NCBI RefSeq assembly: GCF_963921235.1
Contig: NC_086097.1
Span: forward strand, 8,060,001-8,124,000
Direction: 5' to 3'
Source: Mobula hypostoma
Taxonomy: Eukaryota
DNA length: 64,000 nt
Under the pieces are notes generated by a model. That model was not told the DNA's origin. It saw nothing but the letters and a program-made list of their open reading frames with translations, and ran no database searches. Shown in pieces: positions 7,690 through 63,880 of the stretch (the stretch's first letter is position 1; each line of letters begins with the position of its first letter). Both the position numbers and the translations under genes were made by a program.

Positions 7690-10600
7690 GAAGGGGCCCG
7701 TGGGACAGGACTGACCAGCGCCACGCTGGCCCTGCCGTGTGCCAAGAAGCGACCTCTGCTTCCGGTGTGGTGAGGCAGGCCATGTGGCCCAGAACAGTTC
7801 AGCACCAGCATCATGCCACAGCCCAGTGCAGCTATCGGGAAATGCCGGACAGGTAGCACTTCACAAGACCTCCAGCAGAAACCCTTCATTATTGCCTCTC
7901 CATGTGGGTCACTTGGGTGAAGGGCAAGGTTTATACGTGCACTGTAAGGTGGAGGGCATCAAATGCCGGGTATTGGTGGACACGGGGTCAATGGTCACCA
8001 TCATCCATCCACATGTTCTCCCCAACATGGACCAGCCAACCCTGCCTGGGAGGACAACGACAGCAGTCCAGCTGGCTACGGTCACTGGCGACTGTGCGGT
8101 GACGAGAGGGACGAGGAGGCTTGGCATGGCAATGGAGCACGAGGTGTGGCCAGCCGACATCCGGGAGTCCTGCATCACTGGCTTGGACCTGCTACCCTGC
8201 TGGGGGCCCGTGCGGATAGGCTGTGGGCAACACCCTATCTCAGTGCTGAAGCCCGGGCTCTCTGGCAGGGCAGCTCCAGAAAGTGGACCCGGTGGGTGCA
8301 GCAACAACCACCATCAGTCTCCCAGTGACCTGTGGCAGTGCAGTACACCACACAGCAGCTCAGCGCAACACAGTGGAACCAGGGGCAAGCAGTGGGGGCA
8401 GCAGTTCAGATGGCAGCTGGCGGTGAGGTAGACTTCCCCACCATTGACCATCAGCTGTGCATTGAGCAGGAGACTGATCCCATCCCAGCCTGGGTGAGGG
8501 GATGGCTGAGTGTGGGACGGTGGCCGGGGTGGGCAGAGGTCTTCACCCTGGATTGCGCAAGCAAAGCCCAATACACCCAGTGGGAAACACTGGAGGTGTG
8601 CGACGGGTTGCCGTTCCGACTGTGGCAGTTGCCCGACAACGACTAATACCTCCTGCAGCTGGTGGTGTCGCTAGGGCTTCACACTATGATGCTGCTGTCA
8701 GTGCATGGGCTGGTGGGGGCCAGCCAATTTGGGGTCACAAGGATGTTTGGCAGGCTGCGTGAACTCTTCTGTTGGCCTGAGTACAGACATAGAAACATAG
8801 AAACATAGAAAATAGGTGCAGGAGTAGGCCATTCGGCTCTTCAAGGCTGCACTGCCATTCAGTATGATCATGGCTGATCATCCAACTCAGAACCCTGTAC
8901 CTGCCTTCTCTCCATACCCCCTGATCCCTCTAGCCACAAGGGCCATATCTAACTCCCTCTTAAATATAGCCAATTAACTGACCTCAACTGTTTCCTGTGG
9001 CAGAGAATTCCACAGATTCACCACTCTCTGTATGAAGAAGTTTTTCCTCATCTTGGTCCTAAAAGGCTTCCCCTTTATCCTCAAACTGTGACCCCTCGTT
9101 CTGGACTTCCCCAACATCAGGAACAATCTTCCTACATCTAGCGTGTCCAATCCCTTTAGAATTTTATACGTTTCAATAAGATCCCCCCTCAATCTTCTAA
9201 ATTCCAGAGAGTATAAGCCTAGTCAATCCAGTCTTTCATCATATGAAAATCCTGCCATCCCAGAAGTCAATCTGGTGAACCTTCTTTGTACTCCTTCGAT
9301 GGCAAGAACATCTTTCCTTAGATTAGGGGACCAAAACTGCACACAATACTCCAGGTGTGGTCTCACCAAGGCCTTGTACAACTGCAGTAGTACGTCCCTG
9401 CTCCTGTACTTGAATCCTCTTGCTATGAATGCCAGCATACCATTCGCGTTTTTCACCGCCTGCTGTACCTGCATGTCCACTTTCAATGACTGGTGTATAA
9501 TGACACCCAGGTCTCGTTGCACCTCCCCTTTTCCTAATCGGCCACCATTCAGATAATAATCTGTTTTCCTGTTCTTGCCACCAAAGTGGATAACCTCACA
9601 TTTATCCACACTAAATTGCATCTGCCATGAAGTTGCCCACTCACCCAACCTATCCAAGTCACCCAGCATCCTCTTAGCATCGTCCTCACAGCTAACACTG
9701 CCGCCCAGCTTCATGTCATCCGCAAGCTTGGAGATGCTACATTTAATTCCCTCATCTAAGTCATTAATATATTATTGTCAACAACTGGGGTCCCAGCACT
9801 GAGCCTTGCGGTACCCCAGTAGTCACTGCCTGCCATTCAGAAAATGTCCTGTTTATTCCCACTCTTTGCTTCCTGTCTGCCAACTAATTTTCTATCTACA
9901 TCAATACCATACCCCCAATACTGTGTGCTTTAAGTTTGCACACTAATCTCTTGCGTGGGACCTTGTCAAAAACCTTTTGAAAATCCAAATATAACACATC
10001 CACTGGTTCTCCCCTATCCACTCTACTAGTTACATCCTCAAAATATTCTATGAGATTCATCAGACATGATTTTCCTTTCAAAAATCCATGCTGACTTTGT
10101 CCGATGATTTCACAGCTTTCCAAATGTGCTGTTATCACATCTTTGATAACTGACTCTAGCATTTTCCCCACCACCGATGTTAGGCTTACCGGTCTATAAT
10201 TCCCCGGTTTCTCTCTCCCTCCTTTTTTACATTACATTACAGGGTTACATTAGCTACCCTCCAATCCTCAGGAACTAATCCAGAATCTAAAGAGTTTTGA
10301 AAAATTATCACTAATGCAACCACTATTTCTTGGGCTACTTCCTTAAGCACTCTGGGATGCAGACCATCTGGCCCTGGGGATTTATCTGCCTTTAATCCCT
10401 CAATTTACCTAACACCACTTCCCTACTAACATGTATTTCCCTCAGTTCCTCCATCTCACTAGACCCTCTGTCCCCTACTATTTCTGGAAGATTATTTATG
10501 TCTTCCTTAGTGAAGACAGAACCAAAGTAGTTATTCAATTGGTCTGCCATGTCCTTGTTCCCCATGATCAATTCACTTGTTTCTGACTGTAAGGGACCTA

Positions 10601-13731: not shown

Positions 13732-16228
13732 CAGTGCCTATAAGAAGTATTCACCCCTCCCCCCGGAAGTTTTCATGTTTTATTGTTTTATAACATTGAA
13801 TCACAGTGAATTTAATTTGACTTTTTTCAAGATTCAAGATTCAAAAAACTTTATTGTCATTCTAACCGTACATTAGCTCTGCAGGGCAGAATGAGACAGC
13901 ATTTCCCAGGAGCAGTGCAATCATAACATAACAAACAATATATTGATTTTGACAATCAATATATAATTTTGTTAATGACATAACAATTGTCGGCCGTATC
14001 TCAGGTAATGATGAGTTTTAGTACGGAGAGGATATTAAGAACCTGGTGGCATGGTGCGAAGATAATAACCTATCCCTCAACGTCAGCAAGATGAAGGAAT
14101 TGGTTGTTGACTTCAGAAGGAGTAGCGGACCACATGACCCAATTTACATTGATGGTGCGCAAGTGGAACAGGTTAAAAGCTTTAAGTTCCCCGGGGTCAA
14201 TATAACAAATGACCTGACTTGGTCCAACAAAGCAGAGTTCACTGCCAAGAAGGCCCACCAGCACCTTTACTTCCTGAGAAAACTGAAGAAATTTGGCCTG
14301 TCCTCTAAAACCCTCACTAATTTTTATAGATGCACCGTAGAAAGCATTCTTCTAGGGTGCATCAGAACCTGGTATGGAAGTTGTCCTGTCCAAGACCGAA
14401 AGAAGCTGCACAAGATCATGAACACGGTGCAGCACATCACACAAACCAATCTTCCGTCCTTGGACTCACTTTACACCGCACGCTGTCGGAGCAGTGCTGC
14501 CAGGATAATCAAGGACACGACCCACCCAGCCAACACACTTTTCGTCCCTCTTCCCTCTGGAAGAAGGCTCAGGAGCTTGAAGACTCATACGGCCAGATTT
14601 GGGAACAGCTTCCTTCCAACTGTGATAAGACTGCTGAACGGATCCTGACCCAGATCTGGGCCGTACCCTCCAAATATCCAGACCTGCCTCTTGGTTTTTT
14701 TGCACTACCTTACTTTCCATTTTTCTATTTTCTATTTATGACTTATAATTTAAGTTTTTAATATTTACTAACTTTTACTATTTTTAATATTTAATATTTG
14801 TAATCCAGGGAGTGGGAAGCACAGAATCAGATATCGCTGTGATGATTGTACATTCTAGAATCAATTGTTTGGCGACAATAAAGTATAAACTATCAATAAA
14901 AAAGGCTCTTTCATGTCAAAGTGAAAACAGATCTCCACAAAGCGATCTAAATTAATTACAAATATAAAACACAAAATAATTGATTGTATAAGTATTCACC
15001 CCCTTTAATATGACACACCAAATCATCACTTGTGCAGCCCAATTGGTTTTAGAAGTCACATAATTAGTTAAATAGGCTGTTTTTGGTGACCTGTGTGCAG
15101 TCAAGGTGTTTCAATTAATTGTAGTAAAAATGCACCTGTATCTGGAAGATCCAACTCCTGGTGAATCAATATCCTAGCAAAAATTACACCAGGAAGACAA
15201 AGCAACACTCCAAACAACTCTGTGAAAATGTTATTGAAAAGCACAAGTCAGGAAATGGATGCAAGAAAATTTACAGGTCACTGAAGTCACTTGAGTACAG
15301 TTAAGACAATCATCAGAAATGAAAAGAATACGGCACAGCTGTAAATCTGCCCAGAGCAGCTTATCCTCAAAAAACTGAGAGACTGTGCAGGAAGAGGTTT
15401 GGAGTAGGAGACTACCAGGAGACCCACGACATCTGTGGAGGACTTACAAGCTTCAGTCGCTGAGAAGGGAGGGACTGTGCATACAGCAACTGTTGCTCGG
15501 GTGCTTTACCATCACAGCTTTATGGGAGAGTGGCAAAGAAAAAGCCACTGTTGAAAAAAACTCACAAGAAATCTTGGCCAGAGTTTGCCAGAAGGCATGT
15601 GGGAGACTCTGAAGTCAGCTAGAAGAAGATTCTATGGTCTTATGAAACCAAAACTAAGCTTTTTGTCCATCAGACCAAACGTCGTACATCAAAAACAGAC
15701 CATCCCTACTGTGAAGCATGGTGGTGGCTACGTCATGCTGCGGGGATGCTTCATTACAGAAGGCCCTAGAAGGCTTGTAAAGGTAGAGAGTAAAATAAAT
15801 GCAGAAAAATACAAGGAAATCTTGGAGGAAGATTTGATGCAGTATACAAGAGAACTGCAGCTTGGGAGAAAATTTGCTTTCCAGCAACACAATGACCCCA
15901 AACATAAAGCCAAAGCTACACGGGAATGGCTTAAAAACAACAGCGTTAATATCCTGGAGTGGCCAAGTCAGAGTCCAGACCCCAATCCAATTGAGAATTT
16001 AGAGACCTATCCACACAGACTCAAGGCTGTAATTACTGCCAAAGTTGCATCTATTAAATACTGACTTGAAGGGGTGAATACTTATGCAATCAATTATTTT
16101 GTGTTTTATATTCGTAACTAATTTAAATCACATTGTTTAAGCCAAATTAAATCCACTGTGATTCAATATCGTAAAACAGTAAAACATGAAAACTTCCAAG
16201 GGGGAGTAAATACTTTTTATAGGCACTG
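13732..16228 (+). mobile_element. Tc1-like DNA transposon with long IR/DR TIRs and TA TSD; decayed transposase at about 15191-16064
   Basis: TA|CAGTGCCTATAA..TTATAGGCACTG|TA; PTVKHGGG, FQQHNDPKH, WPSQSPDPNPIENL; AAGTATTCACCCC direct repeats. Confidence 0.95.
13970..14890 (+). mobile_element. Rex1/Babar-type LINE 3' part inserted in the left Tc1 TIR
   Basis: ORF 14046..14648 WCEDNNLSLNVSK..KKAHQHLYFLRKL..FYRCTVESIL. Confidence 0.9.
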
Positions 16229-16944
16229 TACATCTAATTAAATGATACAACATTCCTCCGGACTACGGGGCACCCACCAAACATACATCATGCACAGCAA
16301 AGAAAACAAAGTATTATCACAAATAAGTTAATAAAATATAATTCAAAGTGAATGAAGTGGCAGCATAGGTAAACCGTAAACAGCTCACTGTCCTCGTGAT
16401 GAGACCTCAAGTGGTGGTAGAGGATTCATTAGTTTCATAGCCCGAGGGAAGAAGCTGTTGCCCACTCTGGCAGTCCTAGTCCTGATGCTTCTGTAACTCA
16501 TTCCTGAAAGTAGTGGGTCAAAGAGATTTTGAGATGGGTGGTAGGGATCCTCAATAGTGTTTGGGGTCCTTCATCTCCCTGTGGTAAATGTCACAACTGG
16601 GAGGAGGAAGGCCCTGCTGATACCAGAGTAGATCTTTGATGATTGATCAGAAATTGTGGTGCCATAGATAGTGCTGATGGTTTTTGCTACTGAACTTTGA
16701 TGCTGTTACATAGAAGCATCTCAGCCAAGAGGGTAAAACTGAAGAGCTGAATAATGCTACACCTTGGCTTGCCAAAGGCACTTGAGTGTTTTGGACTATC
16801 GGTCACTTGCTGTGTGTAAATATGGGATTTTTTTTTAAAATAAAGCCGTACTGCATACATTGTAAATATCAGTTTTGCACAGACTGGAGTAGCACCACAA
16901 TCTCATTGTCTTGAGCAAGGGCAATAAAGCTCTCTTCTATTTCG

Positions 16945-18208
16945 TTGCCACCTGGCCCTAACCCACCTGGACAAAAATGACACATACGTTCGAATGCTGT
17001 TCATAGACTTCAGTTCAGCATTCAACACAATCATTCCTCAGAAACTGATTGGAAAGCTGAGCCTACTGGGCCTGAACACCTCCCTCTGCAAATGGATCCT
17101 GGACTTCCTGACTGGGAGACCTCAGTCAGTCCGGATTGGAAGCAGCATCTCCACCACCATCACACTGAGCACGGGGGCCCCCCAGGGCTGTGTGCTCAGT
17201 CCACTGCTGTTCACTCTGCTGACCCACGACTGTGCTGCAACACACAGCTCGAACCACATCATCAAGTTCGCCGATGACACGACCGTGGTGGGTCTCATCT
17301 GCAAGAACGATGAGTCAGCATACAGGGAGGGGGTGCAGCGACTAACGGACTGGTGCAGAACCAACAGCCTGTCTCTGAATGTGAACAAAACAAAAGAGAT
17401 GGTTGTTGACTTCAGGAGGACACAGAGCGACCACTCTCCGTTGAGCATCGACAACTCCTCCATAGAGATTTCTTGCTGTTCACCTGGTGGAAAATCTCAC
17501 CTGGTCCCTCAACACCAGCTCCATAGCAAAGAAAGCCCAGCCACGTCTCTACTTTCTGCGAAGGCTGAGAAAGGTCTATCTCCCACCCCCCCCCCCCATC
17601 CTCACCACATTCTGCAGAGGTTGTATTGAGAGCATCCTGAGCAGCTGCATCACTGCCTGGTTCAGAAATTGCACCATCTCGGATCGCAAGCCCCTGCAGC
17701 GGATAATGAGGTCAGCTGAGAAGATCATCGAGCTCTCTCTTCCCGCCGTTACAGACATTTACACCACACGCTGCATCCATAAAGCAAACAGCATTATGAA
17801 GGACCCATGCACCCCTCATACAATCTCTTCTCCCTGCTGCCATCTGGCAAAAGGCACCAAAGTATTCAGGCTCTCACGACCAGACTATGTAACAGTTTCT
17901 TCCCCCAAGCCATCAGTCTCCTCAATACCCAGAGCCTGGACTGACACCAACCTACTGCCCTCTACTGTGCCTATTGTCTTCTTTATTATTTATTGTAATG
18001 CCTGCACTGTTTTGTGCACTTTATGCAGTCCTGGGTAGGTCTGTAGTCTAGTGTAGTTTTTGTGTTGTTTTTACATAGTTCAGTGTAGTTTTTGTATTGT
18101 TTCATGTAGCACCATGGTCCTGAAAAATGTTGTCTCGTTTTTACTGTGTACTGTACCAGCAGTTATGGTCGAAATGTCAATAAAAAGTGACTTGAGCTGA
18201 CTTGACTT
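16945..18208 (+). mobile_element. Rex1/Babar-type LINE, RT plus C-terminus, frameshifted
   Basis: [35 protein letters not shown]-type tail. Confidence 0.93.
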
Positions 18209-20214: not shown

Positions 20215-20994
20215 ATTCCATATGGTCATTGTGGGAAAATATTCCCCTCAGATTCTTTATAAATCTTTCCCCTCTCATATTAAATCTCTGTCCTCTGGTT
20301 TTAGGCTCCATTGTAGGCCTCCATAGTTCAGGGTCAAGCATGGATGTTGTGTCCTAGCTGTCTGGACATGAAGAGCATGTTATAAAGACTCCACTACCCT
20401 GGGAAAAAGACTGTGACTACCTACCTTCACTGTCCCTTCTTATAACTCAAGCCCTCTTGTCCAGTTATCCTCTCTGCACCCTTCCCAGCTTAATGACAGT
20501 CTTCCTGTCGCTGGGCAACAAGAACTACATACAGTACCTCAGTTGTGGTCTCTACATTGACTTACATCCTTTCATAGATAAGGGGGCCAAATTAAATTAA
20601 ATAATTAGTGCAAAAAGAAGAGTGGTTTAATGTCTAAATATTTCCCCTTTGTAGATGGAATATAGCTATCCACGTTTCATAGAGAACTATTGTCCTATGG
20701 GTGCACCACAGAACACAGGCCTCTAATACAAATGTTTGTATATTGGCAGCATGATACATGATTTTATCTGTAATGCAACAATGGTGTTGCAAACTTTTGG
20801 CAAAAGTGCTGTTGCTGTTACTTGCTGGGGCAACTTCAACACTCTTTGTGGCTGTTAAGTGAAAAGACTTTTAGTTGTCTCCAAGAACCGCAATGGACAA
20901 ACTGGCTAGAACACAGACAAAATCGAGAGAACGTCGACACAAGAGATTGTGCAAATGCTGGAAGTCCAGAGAAGCGCAAAAATACTGGAGGAAG

Positions 20995-25803: not shown

Positions 25804-26092
25804 TGGCATGTGGCCAAGTGGTTAAGGCATTTGTCTAGTGATCTGAAGATCGCTAGTTCGAGCCTTGGCTGAGGCAACGTGTTGTGCACTTGAGCAAGGC
25901 ACTTAACCACACATTGCTCTGCGACGACACTGGTACCCTTCCATTGGACAACATCGGTGGCGTGGAGAGAGGATACTTGTAGCATGGGCAACTGCTGGTC
26001 TTCTATACAACCTTGCCCAGGCCTGCACCCTGGAAACCTTCCAAGGCACAAATCCATGGTCTCATGAGACTAACGGATGCCTATCATAAATA
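25804..26092 (+). mobile_element. tRNA-derived SINE with CORE-like middle and RTE-type tail shared with HDV-headed family 1
   Basis: A box TGGCCAAGTGG at 25811, B box GTTCGAGCC at 25856; TSD AC(C/T)GAGCTTTATGT at 25790 and 26093. Confidence 0.88.
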
Positions 26093-26179
26093 ACTGAGCT
26101 TTATGTCAGCTTATATGTTTAAAAATCTATCTTCACAATAATTAGCATGGAAGTTGAAGATGAAGAGAAATTACAGAGC

Positions 26180-38142: not shown

Positions 38143-38742
38143 CAATGGTCCTCTGTTGGTCAGGATTGACCATGGATGTTGTGTCCTAAGTAAAGTTCAC
38201 AAGCCAGGGCAGTACAATACGGAGAGCAAGCTTTTGCCCATGCAGTAGGCTACTCCTCTTGATACAGATGATAAATCCAAATGAACAGCAGAGACCAATA
38301 CAATTGGCACCAGTGGCATCACAGGGGCATCACAGGAGTTGCCAGTCAGCATTGAACTCAATGTAGAACTGCATCAGGGACTCCAGCTCCAGATTTTTCC
38401 TCGGGGTTTACTTTGGAAGCTTTCCCCATGAGGAGGTATAGCCATAAGGCAGCGGAGTTTTGAGATCAGAGTTTTCCTTCTCCCAGATTAGCTGCCAACC
38501 ACGGCTGATGAGCCCTATCTGCCCGAAGCGACTGGTTTTAAGGCGACAGTAACCCGCCTTCTATTGTCTGTAAAAATGTTTCCGCCAGGTTTAGTAGCTA
38601 AGCCACACATGAAGGCCAGGAACTAGACTTGGTTGTCCCACGGTACTCCAGATGCACGCAATTAGGAGTATTTAATAGGTGGTGGGAGTTTATGACACCA
38701 TCACCCCGCCCCCACTCACAGCTATGGCAACCTTAAGGAACC
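38143..38742 (-). mobile_element. HDV-like-headed non-coding RTE-type element, family 1 (degenerate copy)
   Basis: Starts GGTTCCTTAAGGTTG; homologous to 43644-44236; imperfect TSD GTTGATA(G)CTTTTT. Confidence 0.8.
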
Positions 38743-43512: not shown

Positions 43513-43643
43513 AAATTAAAGCTGGGTGAACAGAGTAAACCTAAAGCACAAAATATAATGGAAGGAAAGTTTACTTTTGGACAATGACAGAATGCCCCAA
43601 AGTTATTATAACCAAAGGTTGAAATTGTTGTGTAAGTTTACTG

Positions 43644-44236
43644 GTGGTACTGGTGGCATTCATTAGTCTCGCGAGACCTTGGATCTGCGCCTGGATTCTC
43701 CAGGGTGCAGGCCTGGGCAAGGTTTTATGGAAGACCGGCGGTTGTCCATGCAGCAAGTCTCCCCTCTCCACGTCACCGACGTTGTCCAAGGGAAGGGCAA
43801 GGGCCGATACAGCTTGGCACCAGTGTCGTCGCAGGAGTTGCCAGAATGAGGTTGAAGGCAACGTTGGACTGCCTTAGGGACTCCAGCTCCGGATTTGTCC
43901 TCAGGGTTTACTCCCGAAGCCTTTCCCATCAGTGGGTATGGCCGCAAGGCAGTGGAGGTTTGAAATCAGAGTTTTCCCTCTCTTAGATGGACTACCTTCC
44001 CAGGTTGACGAGCTCCATCTACCCGAAGCACTGGTTTTAAGGCGCCAGGACCCGCCTTCGCCCCTTCTCCTGTCAGTAGAGACAGTTCCACCAGGCTTAG
44101 AGGCTAACCACACGAGAAGGCCAGGAGTTGGGCTTGGTTGTCAGAGGCTATTTGAGGCGCATGCCATAAGGAGCACTTCCTAGGTAGTGGGAGCTTGTCC
44201 CCACTACCAGTCCTCAGCTTGACAACCTTGGAAGCC
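43644..44236 (-). mobile_element. Full-length HDV-like-headed non-coding RTE-type element, family 1, with 12-bp TSD
   Basis: TSD GTAAGTTTA(C/G)TG at 43632 and 44237; no homologous ORF; tail GGTCTCGCGAGAC hairpin. Confidence 0.88.
44067..44236 (-). ncRNA. Candidate HDV-like ribozyme, family 1
   Basis: P1 GG(c)UUCC/GGAACU, P2 CUCCUG/CAGGAG, P3 GCC/GGU, L3 UUCUCG plus hairpin, J4/2 CUGA. Confidence 0.65.
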
Positions 44237-44564
44237 GTAAGTTTAGTGCTAGCAATCAAAGATGAATTTCTCTCCCTTCATTACAGCTTCTTTTAGAATT
44301 AGCTGGCAACGCTAGTTTCTGAACTGGACCCCTTCTAATTCTTTCCACATCAGACTTGAATTCACCAAGAGAAAGATACTGCAGAAAAGCCTTAGCCAAT
44401 GGTCTTAGACTAATTTCTCATCATTTAAGCGGAGATCCAAATTTGAAGAGCAAAAATTAGCAGCACACTTTTTCATATAATCATTTTATTTTGAGATAGA
44501 GCATGGTACAGTCCCTTCTGGCCCAAGTAGCCACACTGCACAGCAACCTGCCCATTTAAACCCT

Positions 44565-46734: not shown

Positions 46735-48290
46735 GGCCATAAAAGATAGGAGCAGAATTAGGTCATTTGGTCCATTGAGAGTGTTCCGACATTCAGTCAT
46801 GGCTGATCCTTTTATCTCCTCCGCAGCCCCAGTCACCAGTCTTCTCCCAGATAACTTTTGATGCCATGTTCAATCAGAACCTATCAATCTCTGCCTTAAA
46901 TATACCCAATGACCTGGCCTGCACAGCTGCCTGTGGTAACAATTTCCATAAATTCACCATCTTCTGGCTAAAGAAATTTCTCCACATCTGTTTTATATGG
47001 ACAACCTCTATCCTGAGTCTGTGCCCTCTTGTCCTAGACTCCACCACCATGGGAAACATCCTTTCCACATCTACTCTGTCTAGGCCTTTCAACGTTCGAA
47101 AGTTTTCAATGAGATCACTCATCATTCTTCGAAATTCCAGTGAGTACAGACCCAGAGCCATCAAATGTTCCACACATGATAATCCTTTTATTCCCAGAAT
47201 CATCCTTGTGAACCTCCTCTGAACCCTCTCTAATGCTAGCACACCTTTTCTTAGACAAGGAGCCCAAAATTGTTCATAATACTAAAGGTAAGGTCTCACC
47301 AGTGCCTTATAAAGCCTCAACGTCACATCACTGCTCTTGTATTCTAGACCCCTTGAAAAGAATGCTAACATTGCATTTGCCTTCCTCGTCACCGACTCTA
47401 ACTGCAAGTTAACCTTTAGGGTGTTCTGCACAAGGACTCTCAAGTCCCTTTGCATCTTAGATTTTGGATTTTTTTCCTTTTTAGAAAATAATCTGCACAT
47501 TTATTTCTACTACTGAAGTGCATGACCATGCATTTTCCAACATTGTATTTCACTTGGCACTTTCTTGCTCATTCTCCTCATCTGTCTAAATCTTTCTGCA
47601 TCCTACCTGTGTCCTCTAATCTACCTGCCCCTCCACCACTCTTTGCATCATCTGCAAATTGGCAACAAAGCCATCTATTTCATCATCTGAATCATTGAGA
47701 TACAGCGCAAAAAGAAGCGTTCCCAACACTGACCCCTGTAGAACACCACTAGTCACTGGCAACCAACCAAAAAAAGGATCTTTTTATTCCCACTTGCTGC
47801 CTCCTTCCAATCAGCCAATGTTCTGACCATGCCAGTAACTTTCCTGTATCAATTTGGTAAGCAGCCTCATGTATAGCACCTTGACAAAGGCCTTCTGAAA
47901 GTCCAAACATACAACCACTGCATCCCCTTTATCTATCCTACTTGTAATCTCCTCAAAGAATTCCAGCAGGTTTGTCAGGCAAGATTTTCCCCTAAGGAAA
48001 TCATGCTGACTTTCTCCTGTCTTGTCCTGCATCACCAAGTTCTCCATACCCACATCCTTAACAACTGAATCCAACATCTTCCCAACCACTGAGGTCAGGC
48101 TAGCTGGTCTATAATTTCCTTTCTGCTGCCTTCCTCCTTACTTAAGGAGTGGAATGAGATTTGCAATTTTCCTGTCCTCTGGCACCATGCTAGAGTCCAA
48201 TGGTTTTTGAAATATCATTATTAATGCCTCCACAGTCTCTATCACAACCTCTTTCAGACCCTAGGGTGAGTTCATCTGGTTCGGGTGACT
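46735..48290 (-). mobile_element. CR1 LINE, decayed ORF2
   Basis: ORFs 47811..48089, 47282..47500, 46874..47242. Confidence 0.93.
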
Positions 48291-54691: not shown

Positions 54692-55245
54692 GGTTCCTTA
54701 AAGTTATCGTAGCAGGGTGAGATAGTGAGTATAAGCTCCCTCTGCCTATTAAATGCTCCCAATGTCATGTGTCTCAAAGACCCTCTGACAACCAAGTCCA
54801 GCTGCTGGCCTTCACGAGTGACTTAGCTACTAAGCCTGGTGGACCCGATCTACTGACAGATTACTGATGCCTTAAAAGTAGTTGATTCAGGCAGATGGGG
54901 TTCATCAGTTCTGGTTAGTAGCTCATGTAGAAGGAGGAAAACTCTGATCTCAAATATCTGCTGCCTTGGGGCTATAAACATTCATGGAGAAGGCATTGGG
55001 AGTACACCCTTATGAAAAATCCAGAGCTGGAATCCCTAAGGTAGTCCTACGTTGAGTTCAACACTGTGCGGCAACTCCTGTGATGCTGATGGTGCCAAAA
55101 TATTTCAGTCTCTGCTGTTCCTTTGGATTTATCGGCTGCGAGGACAGGGGGAGGCTCCTACATGGGCAAAAGCTTGCTCTCCATATCATACTGCTCTGGC
55201 TTACGTATCAACTTTGATCGCTAAGATGCAACCCCACCAATGGAG
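54692..55245 (+). mobile_element. Family 1 HDV-like-headed element
   Basis: Starts GGTTCCTTAAAGTT; CTG-GCC-TTCACG..CTTAGCTACTAAG..GGT-GGACCC-GATCTA-CTGA-CAG. Confidence 0.8.
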
Positions 55246-60979: not shown

Positions 60980-63880
60980 GGTTCCTTAAGGTTGTTAGAG
61001 CCGTGAGTGGTAATGCGGATAAGCTCACACTACCCATTCAATGCTCCCGATGGTATGTGCCTCAAATAGCCTCTGACAACCAAGACCAGCTCCTGACCTT
61101 CACGTGTGATTTAGCTACTAAGCCCAGCAGAATCATTTCTACTGACAGGAGAAGGGGCAAAGGCAGGTTGGTGGCACCTTAAAACCAATTGCTTTGGGCA
61201 GATGGGGCTTGTCAGCCGTGGCTGGCAGCTCATCTAGGAGAAGAAAAACTCTGATTTCAAATCTCCGCTGCCTTGCAGCTGTACCCACCAGGACCGGATT
61301 AAGCTAGCGCAGGGCCTGTAGTGTATGTTATAAAGGGGCCCTAAATTAAAAAACGCACATAAGTATTATAACATAAATTATTTACTTGCATAGTAAAGTA
61401 ATTCAATTTTTTCATTTGCTATACAGCCAGATAATACGACAAATGTCTGTCACTTCAGTAATAGTATTGCTTACATGTAGGTATCAATTTCAAATGTCAA
61501 AAGTAACAAAACTACAATTTAAAAGTTAGATTTTCTAGATTTAGCATGAGCAAACTTGTTGATGATACTGGAAATGTCTATTTCACGCAGAAGTTCATGT
61601 TCAATGCTCATTAGATGAGATTGTTCAATCTGTTCTGACCCATGGTGCTCCTTAGTTCAATTTTAAAATGAGCGTTCTCCACTGCAGTTGGTAACCATGA
61701 GTGACAAATAGATGCGCAAGGCATTTTCTACATTTGGAAAACATGACTCCAAAGAATTGTCAGTTATCAAACTGTACAACTGTAACTCTACAAGGTCTTG
61801 TTTGGCGCCAATATGAGAAGTAAGATCAGTTTTCAACAGTTCAGTAAACTGCACAACTTCTTCATTAAGACTTTCTTCCAGATCTTCCGGATATGATTTA
61901 ATAAGATTTGATGACCTCTTTACGATCTCTTCAGGTGTAAACGACTGTAACTGATGAAGGAATCCAAAAACACCATTCACCTTTAGATAAGCTTTCTGTC
62001 TTTTTGACAGGGCAGAAAGCAAGCTGTCAATAATTTCAAGAAATGTTCGGCTTTTAAACTTCTGAGAAGGCGTTCGAGATTCACCAAGTGGATCAAGAAT
62101 GCTGGAACCACTGAAATTATTACATGCGTGATTTTGCTTGTGTTTTCTTCAAGTTTGCTGTTGATAATCTTCACACTTAGTCAGGTCCTTGGCTTTTTGC
62201 TCAATGTCTAAAAAAGTAGACCGCATAGCTTGAATATATCCATGCAAGGATTCATAGAGTGCACAAGCTATGTTCAAGTCTTGGCCCGAAGATTGCAAAG
62301 AAGCACTGGTCATTTGAAAACGCTGTAATACTTGATCCCACAATATGACCATTATTCCTGTTTCCAACTTCATCATGGTTGAAGGTAGTCCATGAGCCTG
62401 TTGTCGACACTCTGCCTTCTGATCATTGTTATTTGAAATGTCATCCAAGACTTGTTTTATTGCAGAAAAGCTGTGTAAAAGTGCTTTTGTTGCATCTGCA
62501 CGAGCTGACCACCTGGTATCTGACCTTCTTTTCACAATGAGCAAATGAGCACCACCATCAGATAATGCAGCAGAAAGGAGATCCCACCGATAAGTAGAAG
62601 CAGAAAAAAAATGTGTACAGGCTTTCTACAAATTGAAAGAAAATTAATGCTTTTTGACAACATTCAGCAGTACATTTTCCAACCAAATTTTGTGAATGTG
62701 CAAAACATGGAATGTAATCCACAAACTCATTCAGCTCTTTAGTTCATGCTTGTAAGCCACAATACTTGCCACTCCTGTTGCTGGCATTGTCATAACTTTG
62801 ACCACGGCAGTCTTTTATATCAACGTCATTTTCCTTTAAAAAGTCAAGCAAACTTTGAGCGAGCTGTTCAGCACTATGACCTTCTATAGAGTCCCCCGAC
62901 ATGAAAACAACAGCGTTGCCAGATTGTCGTTGTTGTGGCCTGGATAAAATCACAAAGCATTGCGTTAGCAATAGGTACAAGGCAGTTACTTTATTCGACA
63001 AAACAAGGTTACAGCAGGCAGAGACCCCTGGCAGAACAGGTCTAATCGCCTTGTGATTGAGGCTCGGTATTTATTTGCTAAACACAAAGGACAGTTCACA
63101 GTTACAAGTATAGACAATTCTTTGAAGTTTTCACATCTTTTGATAAAATTCATTCTACTGGTGCCAGTATGCCTAAGCTGGCATTCATGGCCTTTAGGAA
63201 TGCAAGTTAAAATCAATAATACATTATTTGGTATGTTATGTGCTAACATAGAGGACAAATCATATTCAAAAACCATAGATATGGTGTCTTCGCAACTACC
63301 TGTAAACTTAGCATTCTTGTCTCAGAGGTGCCAGAGATGCATTGTTACAAATGAAACTGGGTTCACAGCTTTTAGGAAATGCACTGTTATGAACTCAATC
63401 CAAGTACTTTGTCAAAGAACAGAAAACAGATGGCTGAAGTCATTTATTTAAGTGTAAATGAATCGTCTACCCAAAACTCACTCTAACAGTTGTGAGAATA
63501 CGGTGAGATGCCGCTTTCACCAGACTGCAGCTTGCAAGCATTTAGTGCGGGTGGGGTGCGCGAAAAAGCTACTTTTGCTACGAGGTTAATCTGGCCCTGA
63601 TACCCACCGACAGAGAAGGCATTGGGAGTAAACCCCAAGCCAAAATCCAGAGCTGGAGTCCCTAAGGCAGTCTAACAATGTTGACTGGGAACTCCTGCGA
63701 CGCTGCTGGTACTATACTGTATCAGTCTCTGCCATTTCTTTGGATTCATCAGATGCACGGAGAGAGGGAGCTTTCTACGTGGGCAAAAGCTTGCTCTCCA
63801 TTTTGTACTGCCGTGGCTTGTGTATCAGGACAGCTAGGACACAACATCCATGGTCAACTCTGAGCGACGGAGACCTGACA
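60980..63880 (+). mobile_element. Family 1 HDV-like-headed element (60980-61288 and 63600-63880), split by a hAT
   Basis: Starts GGTTCCTTAAGGTTG; core 60980-61151 with CpG decay; sequence resumes after the hAT. Confidence 0.85.
61289..63599 (-). mobile_element. hAT (Tip100/ZMYM1-like) DNA transposon with decayed transposase
   Basis: TIRs CAGGACCGGATTAA and TTAATCTGGCCCTG; TSD (G/A)TACCCAC; CRGQSYDNASN, SDTRWSAR, FPNV..ALRIYLSL.VTNCSGERSF. Confidence 0.95.

Follow-up and report, generated by a model that had tools for sequence, protein, structure and literature searches.

How does a short retroelement that encodes no protein and carries no recognizable promoter come to have an exact 5' end, and could that end be cut by the element's own RNA? 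The question is raised by a 64,000-nt stretch of the Mobula hypostoma genome (contig NC_086097.1, positions 8,060,001 to 8,124,000 of the forward strand; here "the window," numbered from its first letter), which contains several members of a family of ~590-nt non-coding retroelements without long terminal repeats (non-LTR elements), among them one decayed copy at 43641-44236 (-). An initial annotation, made from the letters of the window alone, had read the 5' part of that copy as a variant of the self-cleaving ribozymes that resemble that of hepatitis delta virus (HDV). Comparison of the copies, at the level of their sequences, suggests that the family master probably did encode an HDV-like ribozyme that processes the 5' end of the element RNA, known in its class and role, new in having a helix in loop L3 and in the type of element that hosts it. 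On a broader reading we consider the evidence evenly balanced: that the family is a promoter-less, non-coding, ribozyme-headed short interspersed element (SINE) that multiplied into the thousands in several species by way of host transcripts from which it trims itself, and that its ribozyme represents a new HDV-like subclass without P4, with a J1/2 domain acting as a pinch and with an additional helix within the catalytic loop L3.

A 170-nt query from the 5' end of the element returned 3,115 first-look candidates in the 3.48-Gb, 200-contig genome; the best 40 candidates per query were scored, here at 92-100% identity. Copies were sampled from three subfamilies, A (n = 30), B (n = 30) and C (n = 21), 81 in total. 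The 30 subfamily A loci were 87-94% identical across ~586 nt and gave a consensus of 592 nt with 57% G+C. The B consensus was ~588 nt long, with a 3' part homologous to that of A and diverged from it. No run of four T residues and no reading frame longer than 107 amino acids were found in the A consensus, and a coding role was rejected because of the latter. Thousands of sequence contigs from four organisms (four data sets) contained the family, which is a non-autonomous, non-coding, SINE-like non-LTR element without a small-RNA-derived head. Two A copies lying ~520 kb apart on one contig (L013 and L014 on C96) had identical flanks on both sides and therefore reflect a segmental duplication and not separate insertions; L014 was omitted from the subfamily A alignment. 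The copies in the window, and the target-site duplications (TSDs) of the A copy, are as follows.

43641..44236 (-), subfamily A copy of the element, 87-94% identical over ~586 nt to 29 other genomic copies, bounded by TSDs
44237..44245 (-), 5' TSD TAAACTTAC (9 nt, read 44245-44237), repeated exactly at 43632-43640
43632..43640 (-), 3' TSD TAAACTTAC (read 43640-43632), exact repeat of the 5' TSD
38150..38742 (-), older full-length copy of C/B type, from sequence comparison
54692..55209 (+), older B-type copy with its 3' end not defined, from sequence comparison
60980..61288 (+), 5' half of a B-type copy, interrupted by a 2.3-kb insertion, from sequence comparison
63600..63876 (+), 3' half of the B-type copy that starts at 60980, from sequence comparison

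All four 5' ends proposed initially, at 44236 (-), 38742 (-), 54692 (+) and 60980 (+), exist at those bases; the 60980 copy has its 5' end but is not continuous, being split by the insertion at 61289-63599. That insertion contains a weak match to a hAT dimerisation domain (61666-62148 (-), E = 0.003).

The boundary at 44236, which had been drawn from a TSD, was borne out by the 9-nt repeat listed above. Similarity began at GGTTCC in subfamilies A, B and C, and the flanks beyond it were unrelated, with a mean pairwise identity of 0.28-0.34 over the 12 nt upstream in the three subfamilies. The hexamer stood exactly at the expected place in 17/30 A, 9/30 B and 9/21 C copies and was one mismatch off in another 6 A, 7 B and 5 C copies, counts in which the start was not anchored for 3 B and 3 C copies. 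Within the window the start described as GG(C)TTCC resolved into GGTTCC in three copies and GGCTTCC, with an extra C, in the 44236 copy, all with unrelated upstream flanks. In 12 of the 30 A copies the 6 nt or more up to and including position -1 recurred exactly at the 3' junction, and in 6 of these the repeat was at least 9 nt long. The base before the first G of P1 (G1), mostly T, belongs to the TSD, so that the element begins with G1, as in the 5'-processing ribozymes of the R2, RTE and L1Tc type. The expected clustering of 5' ends at G1 was thus seen in all three subfamilies, in copies chosen by best match to a query starting at G1, a sample that does not measure the frequency of 5' truncation.

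What begins at this base is a series of HDV-like parts. From 5' to 3' the A consensus reads P1 GGUUCC; J1/2 of 101 nt; P2 CUCCUG; P3 GCC; L3 UUCUCGU-GU-(GGCUUAG CCU CUAAGCC)-C, in which the bracketed letters form a 7-bp hairpin; P3' GGC; P1' GGAACU; GU; UUCUA; CUGA; and P2' CAGGAG. The B and C cores differed from this in three respects only: L3 position 4 was A and not U, the hairpin loop was CUA and not CCU, and the last base of P1' was C (CpG-restored consensus of 79 copies), so that G1-C replaced G1-U. The consensus first drawn by eye was thereby recovered from 30, 30 and 21 genomic copies of three subfamilies, together with the strand order of the HDV double pseudoknot. In the 44236 copy the parts lie as follows.

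44230..44236 (-), P1 5' strand, GGCTTCC (consensus GGTTCC; extra C at 44234), with the proposed cleavage 5' of G 44236
44128..44229 (-), structured J1/2 domain, from its fold and from subfamily differences
44227-44220 / 44143-44136 (-), J1/2 closing stem
44215-44210 / 44173-44168 (-), J1/2 inner stem
44208-44199 / 44192-44183 (-), J1/2 apical stem
44122..44127 (-), P2 5' strand CTCCTG
44119..44121 (-), P3 5' strand GCC
44093..44118 (-), L3: TTCTCGT at 44118-44112, GT, hairpin at 44109-44094, Y at 44093
44090..44092 (-), P3 3' strand, here GGT (consensus GGC)
44084..44089 (-), P1 3' strand GGAACT
44077..44083 (-), J1/4 GT, then the 5-nt linker that replaces P4
44073..44076 (-), J4/2 CTGA (CNRA), with the candidate catalytic C at 44076
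44067..44072 (-), P2 3' strand CAGGAG

The J1/2 stems named initially, GGUUGUCA/UGACAACC and GGUAGUGGG(G)/(U)CCCACUACC, were present in this copy, and position 44076 (-) is indeed the C of CUGA. The G of J1/4 would pair with the C of L3 as a one-pair P1.1. Compared with the consensus, the copy carries an additional C in P1 (44234), has lost one C from the L3 hairpin (consensus GGCTTAG-CCT-CTAAGCC), pairs G with U in P3 and shows one linker change; it is probably dead.

The consensus was compared with a published descriptor for HDV-like ribozymes with a loose P4 (RNArobo; supplement of PMC4870747, Figs S11 and S36). It calls for a P1 of 5-8 bp with a purine first, 1-51 nt in J1/2, 6-8 bp in P2 and 3 bp in P3, an L3 of the form TYYHCG-N{0,1}-Y, RN after P1', a stretch of 4-54 nt where P4 would be, CNRA and P2'. 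P1 has 6 bp in every subfamily and is closed by a G-Y pair (GGUUCC/GGAACU in A, GGUUCC/GGAACC in B and C, CpG restored); P2 (CUCCUG/CAGGAG) is pseudoknotted with P1, and P3 (GCC/GGC) is contiguous with P2; GU, UUCUA and CUGA supply the RN, the loose P4 and the CNRA directly before P2'. J1/2, at 101-105 nt in the consensus, exceeds the published length. In L3, UUCUCG (A) or UUCACG (B) agrees with TYYHCG and the last base is Y, but 20 nt fill the N{0,1} slot; this insertion, composed of U, GU and the 17-nt hairpin, lies exactly at the descriptor's optional nucleotide. The consensus therefore agrees with the descriptor in all helices and at all positions of constrained sequence, and departs in two variable-length elements only. 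A suspicion that standard descriptors could miss the variant was well founded, as J1/2 and L3 exceed the published limits and the Rfam models gave no match.

How easily such a pattern arises depends on how much of it is required. In the background (428,514 nt, element-masked), P1, P2 and P3 alone had 488 start places, reduced to 16 when CNRA was added, and in its loose form, without the L3 motif, the pattern fitted 7 of 20,000 shuffles in which base 1 was the anchor. Addition of the published L3, Y and RN constraints, with the length limits of J1/2 and L3 relaxed, left 1 fitting sequence among 300,000 anchored dinucleotide shuffles and 0 matches in the same background. It is therefore very unlikely that the match at the TSD-defined first base is due to chance, at a significance that is somewhat inflated because the descriptor was relaxed after the sequence had been seen.

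After insertion the copies decay neutrally, and information therefore comes only from differences between the subfamily masters. The non-CpG differences between the A and B consensus sequences were distributed as follows.

Core (positions 108-169): 3/62 positions, 4.8%
J1/2: 12.7%
Positions 170-440: 11.3%
Tail: 32.7%

The core was the best-conserved segment between the subfamilies, and its three differences all fell at positions that the descriptor leaves free, namely the H of L3, the hairpin loop and the last base of P1', where pairing with G1 was kept. Compensatory change was found in J1/2, where one pair was A-U in 30 rows and G-C in 38 rows of the 79-copy alignment, and two further pairs alternated between Watson-Crick and wobble forms (C-G/U-G and A-U/G-U). 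A second apparent double change in J1/2 (columns 24/94) was rejected as an artefact of alignment and CpG decay. The J1/2 of the A consensus folded at -42.9 kcal/mol, and its 8-bp closing helix starts 2 nt past P1 and ends 8 nt short of P2. In a natural A copy (L027) the 175-nt region folded at -68.7 kcal/mol (z = -2.9 versus shuffles), and in a natural B-type copy (L043) the minimum free energy (MFE) structure already included P2, P3 and the L3 hairpin.

On these grounds we propose that the first ~169 nt of the element would act as an HDV-like self-cleaving ribozyme with a CPEB3-like core. With no recognizable promoter of their own, copies would be transcribed within longer host transcripts. 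The RNA could then fold into a nested double pseudoknot of P1 (GGUUCC/GGAACY), P2 (CUCCUG/CAGGAG), P3 (GCC/GGC) and a one-pair P1.1 formed by the L3 C and the G after P1', and the C of the J4/2 CUGA would cleave 5' of G1, freeing an RNA that begins exactly at the element's first base. The reverse transcriptase of a presumed partner long interspersed element (LINE) would recognize the 3' stem-loop tail and copy the freed RNA. Judging from HDV structures, L3 probably faces solvent at its 3' end, where it could accommodate a helix. The 7-bp hairpin occupies this optional and putatively solvent-facing 3' position and may be tolerated there, and 5 nt would stand in for P4. The ~100-nt J1/2 domain, closed by 8 bp, may pinch P1 and P2 together as P1.2 does in large HDV-like ribozymes, which a helix in J1/2 speeds by pinching these two helices (PMC4908430).

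A number of observations weigh against a ribozyme in this family. None of the four window copies, in which the motif had first been described, fits it in full; the consensus does, and the relaxed descriptor fits end to end 11 of the 81 sampled copies (8/30 A, 3/30 B and 0/21 C), among them A copies at L027, L005 and L015 and a B copy at L043. The comparison with the Rfam HDV clan that had been suggested initially came out negative for the whole window (at the gathering score), for three near-consensus loci (E up to 10) and for the 196 nt searched alone (E up to 10); such a miss is expected, because the two insertions would hurt the HDV-clan models, but it is still a failed test. The core is thin, with a 6-bp P1, one G-C pair in P1.1 and no P4, and L3, into which the helix is inserted, is part of the active site of HDV-like ribozymes. 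A full-text literature search, on which earlier element lists may bear, found no helix or extension inserted in L3 of an HDV-like ribozyme. Although P1, P2 and P3 were conserved between subfamily masters, as had been anticipated, they were invariant and gave no covariation, which leaves the fold neither favored nor disfavored on that count: P2, P3 and the L3 hairpin showed no master-level change in the 79-copy alignment, and P1 was invariant between the A and B masters (P1 was omitted from the pair counts because MAFFT had set the A and the B/C P1 columns out of register). The deficit of differences in the core corresponded to p ~0.07 by a rough hand Poisson estimate from the counts, and conservation alone is weak evidence because the subfamilies differ by only ~11% in neighboring regions. 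The nested MFE structure of L027 pairs CCUUCUC (P3/L3) with GAGAAGG (P2' end and beyond) and so competes with the ribozyme fold, and the HDV-like fold, with its helices summed, comes out at about the same energy as the MFE, without a clear advantage; the U-to-A difference of B and C disrupts this alternative helix. Finally, no autonomous LINE with the same head was found in the 293 kb searched or beside the A copy of locus L022.

Three contigs of another organism contain a variant P3'/P1' stretch, …GGGAGAUUUG…, which joins at window position 44108. It would supply covariation in the core if its P1 had changed to match.

The alternative that survives best, although we hold it to be unlikely, is that the 5' end results from transcription initiation at base 1, driven by an internal promoter within the first ~100 bp, either for RNA polymerase II (Pol II), as in many LINEs, or of an unrecognized Pol III type, with the motif an inactive relic, a lucky match or a coexisting feature. 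A fixed start site would explain the sharp 5' end equally well; the 592-nt consensus has no T4 run, so that Pol III read-through is possible; the missing covariation in the core and the failed Rfam match also count in its favor; and a dual promoter and ribozyme has a precedent in Pr77/L1TcRz of L1Tc (PMC3383444). The head, however, matched no tRNA, 5S, 7SL or small nuclear RNA and no other credible Rfam family (Rfam, ARAGORN), which also led us to reject a classical Pol III-transcribed SINE with a head of such origin, and inspection by eye against the A-box and B-box consensus sequences as we know them found no such arrangement. No extra untemplated G was seen at the 5' junctions, where base -1 is part of the TSD, and a relic or lucky match fits poorly with 1 in 300,000 anchored shuffles and with a core that is the best-conserved segment. 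Decidedly improbable, in our judgment, is a structured but non-catalytic 5' domain of ~170 nt, serving as a platform for LINE proteins or as a stabilizing substitute for a cap, with P1/P1' merely its closing helix. The strong structure of J1/2, the sole part with compensatory change, and the better-than-shuffled folding of the 175-nt region are in its favor, but it leaves unexplained why TYYHCG, Y, RN, CNRA and the G1-Y pair occur in the right topology, and it gives no account of the precise 5' end. That ordinary repeat DNA merely resembles a ribozyme, through complementary hexamers picked by eye, is the least probable explanation by far and already disfavored, since the loose pattern is common but the fully constrained one is absent from the background, nearly absent from shuffles and, in three subfamilies, coincides exactly with the first base that the TSDs define.

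The 3' end of the family bears on the partner that the proposed ribozyme-processed RNA would need. The features concerned are the following.

43656..43677 (-), 3' tail stem-loop and terminal ...GCCACCA motif, likewise present in the tRNA-type SINE at 26059-26080
25804..26095 (+), tRNA-type SINE, its last ~146 nt in common with subfamily A

The tail stem-loop is the likely recognition site of the partner reverse transcriptase, and its pairing was kept between the A and B consensus sequences by a U-A to A-U flip (seen by eye). The tRNA-type SINE has box-A- and box-B-like sequence and an 11-nt TSD (GAGCTTTATGT); ARAGORN called no tRNA in the window, the head of this SINE included. Since the tail is common to it and subfamily A, the two presumably share the same LINE partner. 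A search of 293 kb with the tail alone returned the family's own pieces and the tRNA-type SINE, and nothing else. At the element end (window 43641-43677 (-); 3' ends of L003, L015 and L017) the stem-loop is followed by ...GGAUGCCACCA, and in some copies the terminal CCA is repeated (CCACCACCACCA), resembling the 3' end of a tRNA acceptor.

Candidates for the partner itself were rejected in turn. Four longer copies (L031-L034) were ~625-nt variants without open reading frames. At L022/L085 an A copy breaks off at position 455 beside a CR1-like LINE whose tail is unlike that of the element, and at L022 the remaining element was not found within the next 3.1 kb. The CR1-like LINE that follows this A copy on the same strand (L022 1-1216) shows an inverted partial self-duplication, resembling the 5' inversion of twin priming. 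A 52-nt piece at 20315-20366 (-) matched only the end of the B-type tail, had no LINE coding sequence upstream and is probably a heavily 5'-truncated copy. The link to RTE elements that the initial annotation had entertained was not found; the LINE fragments seen were CR1-like (RVT_1 and an ALKBH8_N-type C-terminal motif), none of them shown to be the partner. In the window such CR1-like fragments lie at 14022-18035 (+), 9899-10231 (-) and 47814-48137 (-), and other mobile-element remains include a gag/aspartyl-protease stretch (7715-8428) and a DDE_3 match (15555-16061).

It is established that non-LTR retrotransposons can carry an HDV-like ribozyme at their first base (R2, other LINEs, L1Tc/NARTc; PMC7761336, PMC8256844), and the present family resembles the 5' ribozymes of R2, RTE-Baggins and L1Tc in that the element starts at G1 of P1, the strand order of the double pseudoknot is the same and cleavage at this position would free the element RNA from its co-transcript. 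Unlike them, its host element is non-coding, ~590 nt long, dispersed and not specific to ribosomal DNA, and its candidate copies number in the thousands. A 20-nt insertion that includes a 7-bp hairpin is present in L3, the J1/2 domain is folded compactly, and no RTE or R2 link was found. A very long J1/2 and the absence of a P4 stem are shared with the Bombyx R2 ribozyme, moth R2 ribozymes have natural J1/2 regions of 216-498 nt, and an abalone ribozyme has 5 nt in the place of P4 (all PMC3774820). The novelty claimed for the variant thus holds in part: a long J1/2 combined with a missing P4 was already known, while the L3 hairpin, alone among its unusual features, is without precedent in the literature searched. 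Four diagnostic strings of the family did not occur in the literature texts, and 6 matches of an invariant 18-mer in metagenomes were rejected as unrelated chance hits.

Short, protein-less elements that borrow LINE machinery and keep a self-cleaving head, as the present family putatively does, include R2 short internally deleted elements (SIDEs), NARTc of Trypanosoma cruzi and Schistosoma elements with a twister variant (PMC3414825, PMC3383444, PMC8501958); for those an autonomous parent with the same head is known, whereas here none was found and the tail is common with a tRNA-type SINE. The likeness to CPEB3 noted initially agrees with PMC4836649, in which P1.1 consists of one G-C and a U-U and the L3 residues include U20, C22, A23 and G25: the B and C subfamilies have the L3 sequence UUCACG, P1.1 would be one G-C plus U-U, and the 4-nt J4/2 contains the catalytic C (a candidate here). 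CPEB3 differs in being single-copy and intronic; its J1/2 is short, its P4 hairpin normal and its L3 7 nt long. The comparison used what we take to be the full CPEB3 sequence. The drz-Mtgn minimal HDV-like and theta ribozymes likewise have no P4 domain (bioRxiv 10.1101/2023.06.13.544163) but are ~50-60 nt long and of phage or metagenomic origin, lack a J1/2 domain as well as an L3 insertion, and are not set within retroelements.

Should the RNA prove not to cleave, the family would caution against relying on a descriptor match alone, even a full one that sits at the element's first base. If the proposed reading is true, L3 tolerates or even uses a helical insertion at the site of the optional nucleotide, and cleavage would add a helix inside L3 to the sequence space of HDV-like ribozymes; standard descriptors and Rfam models do not catch this form, so that counts of similar ribozymes in large genomes may be too low. 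Cleavage would also make available thousands of natural variants, intact and decayed, for the study of structure and function, and would mark the L3 site as a possible insertion point for engineered control modules. For the biology of the family, it would mean a SINE-like element headed by a ribozyme in place of a Pol III promoter, which would bear on how promoter-less elements rise in copy number.

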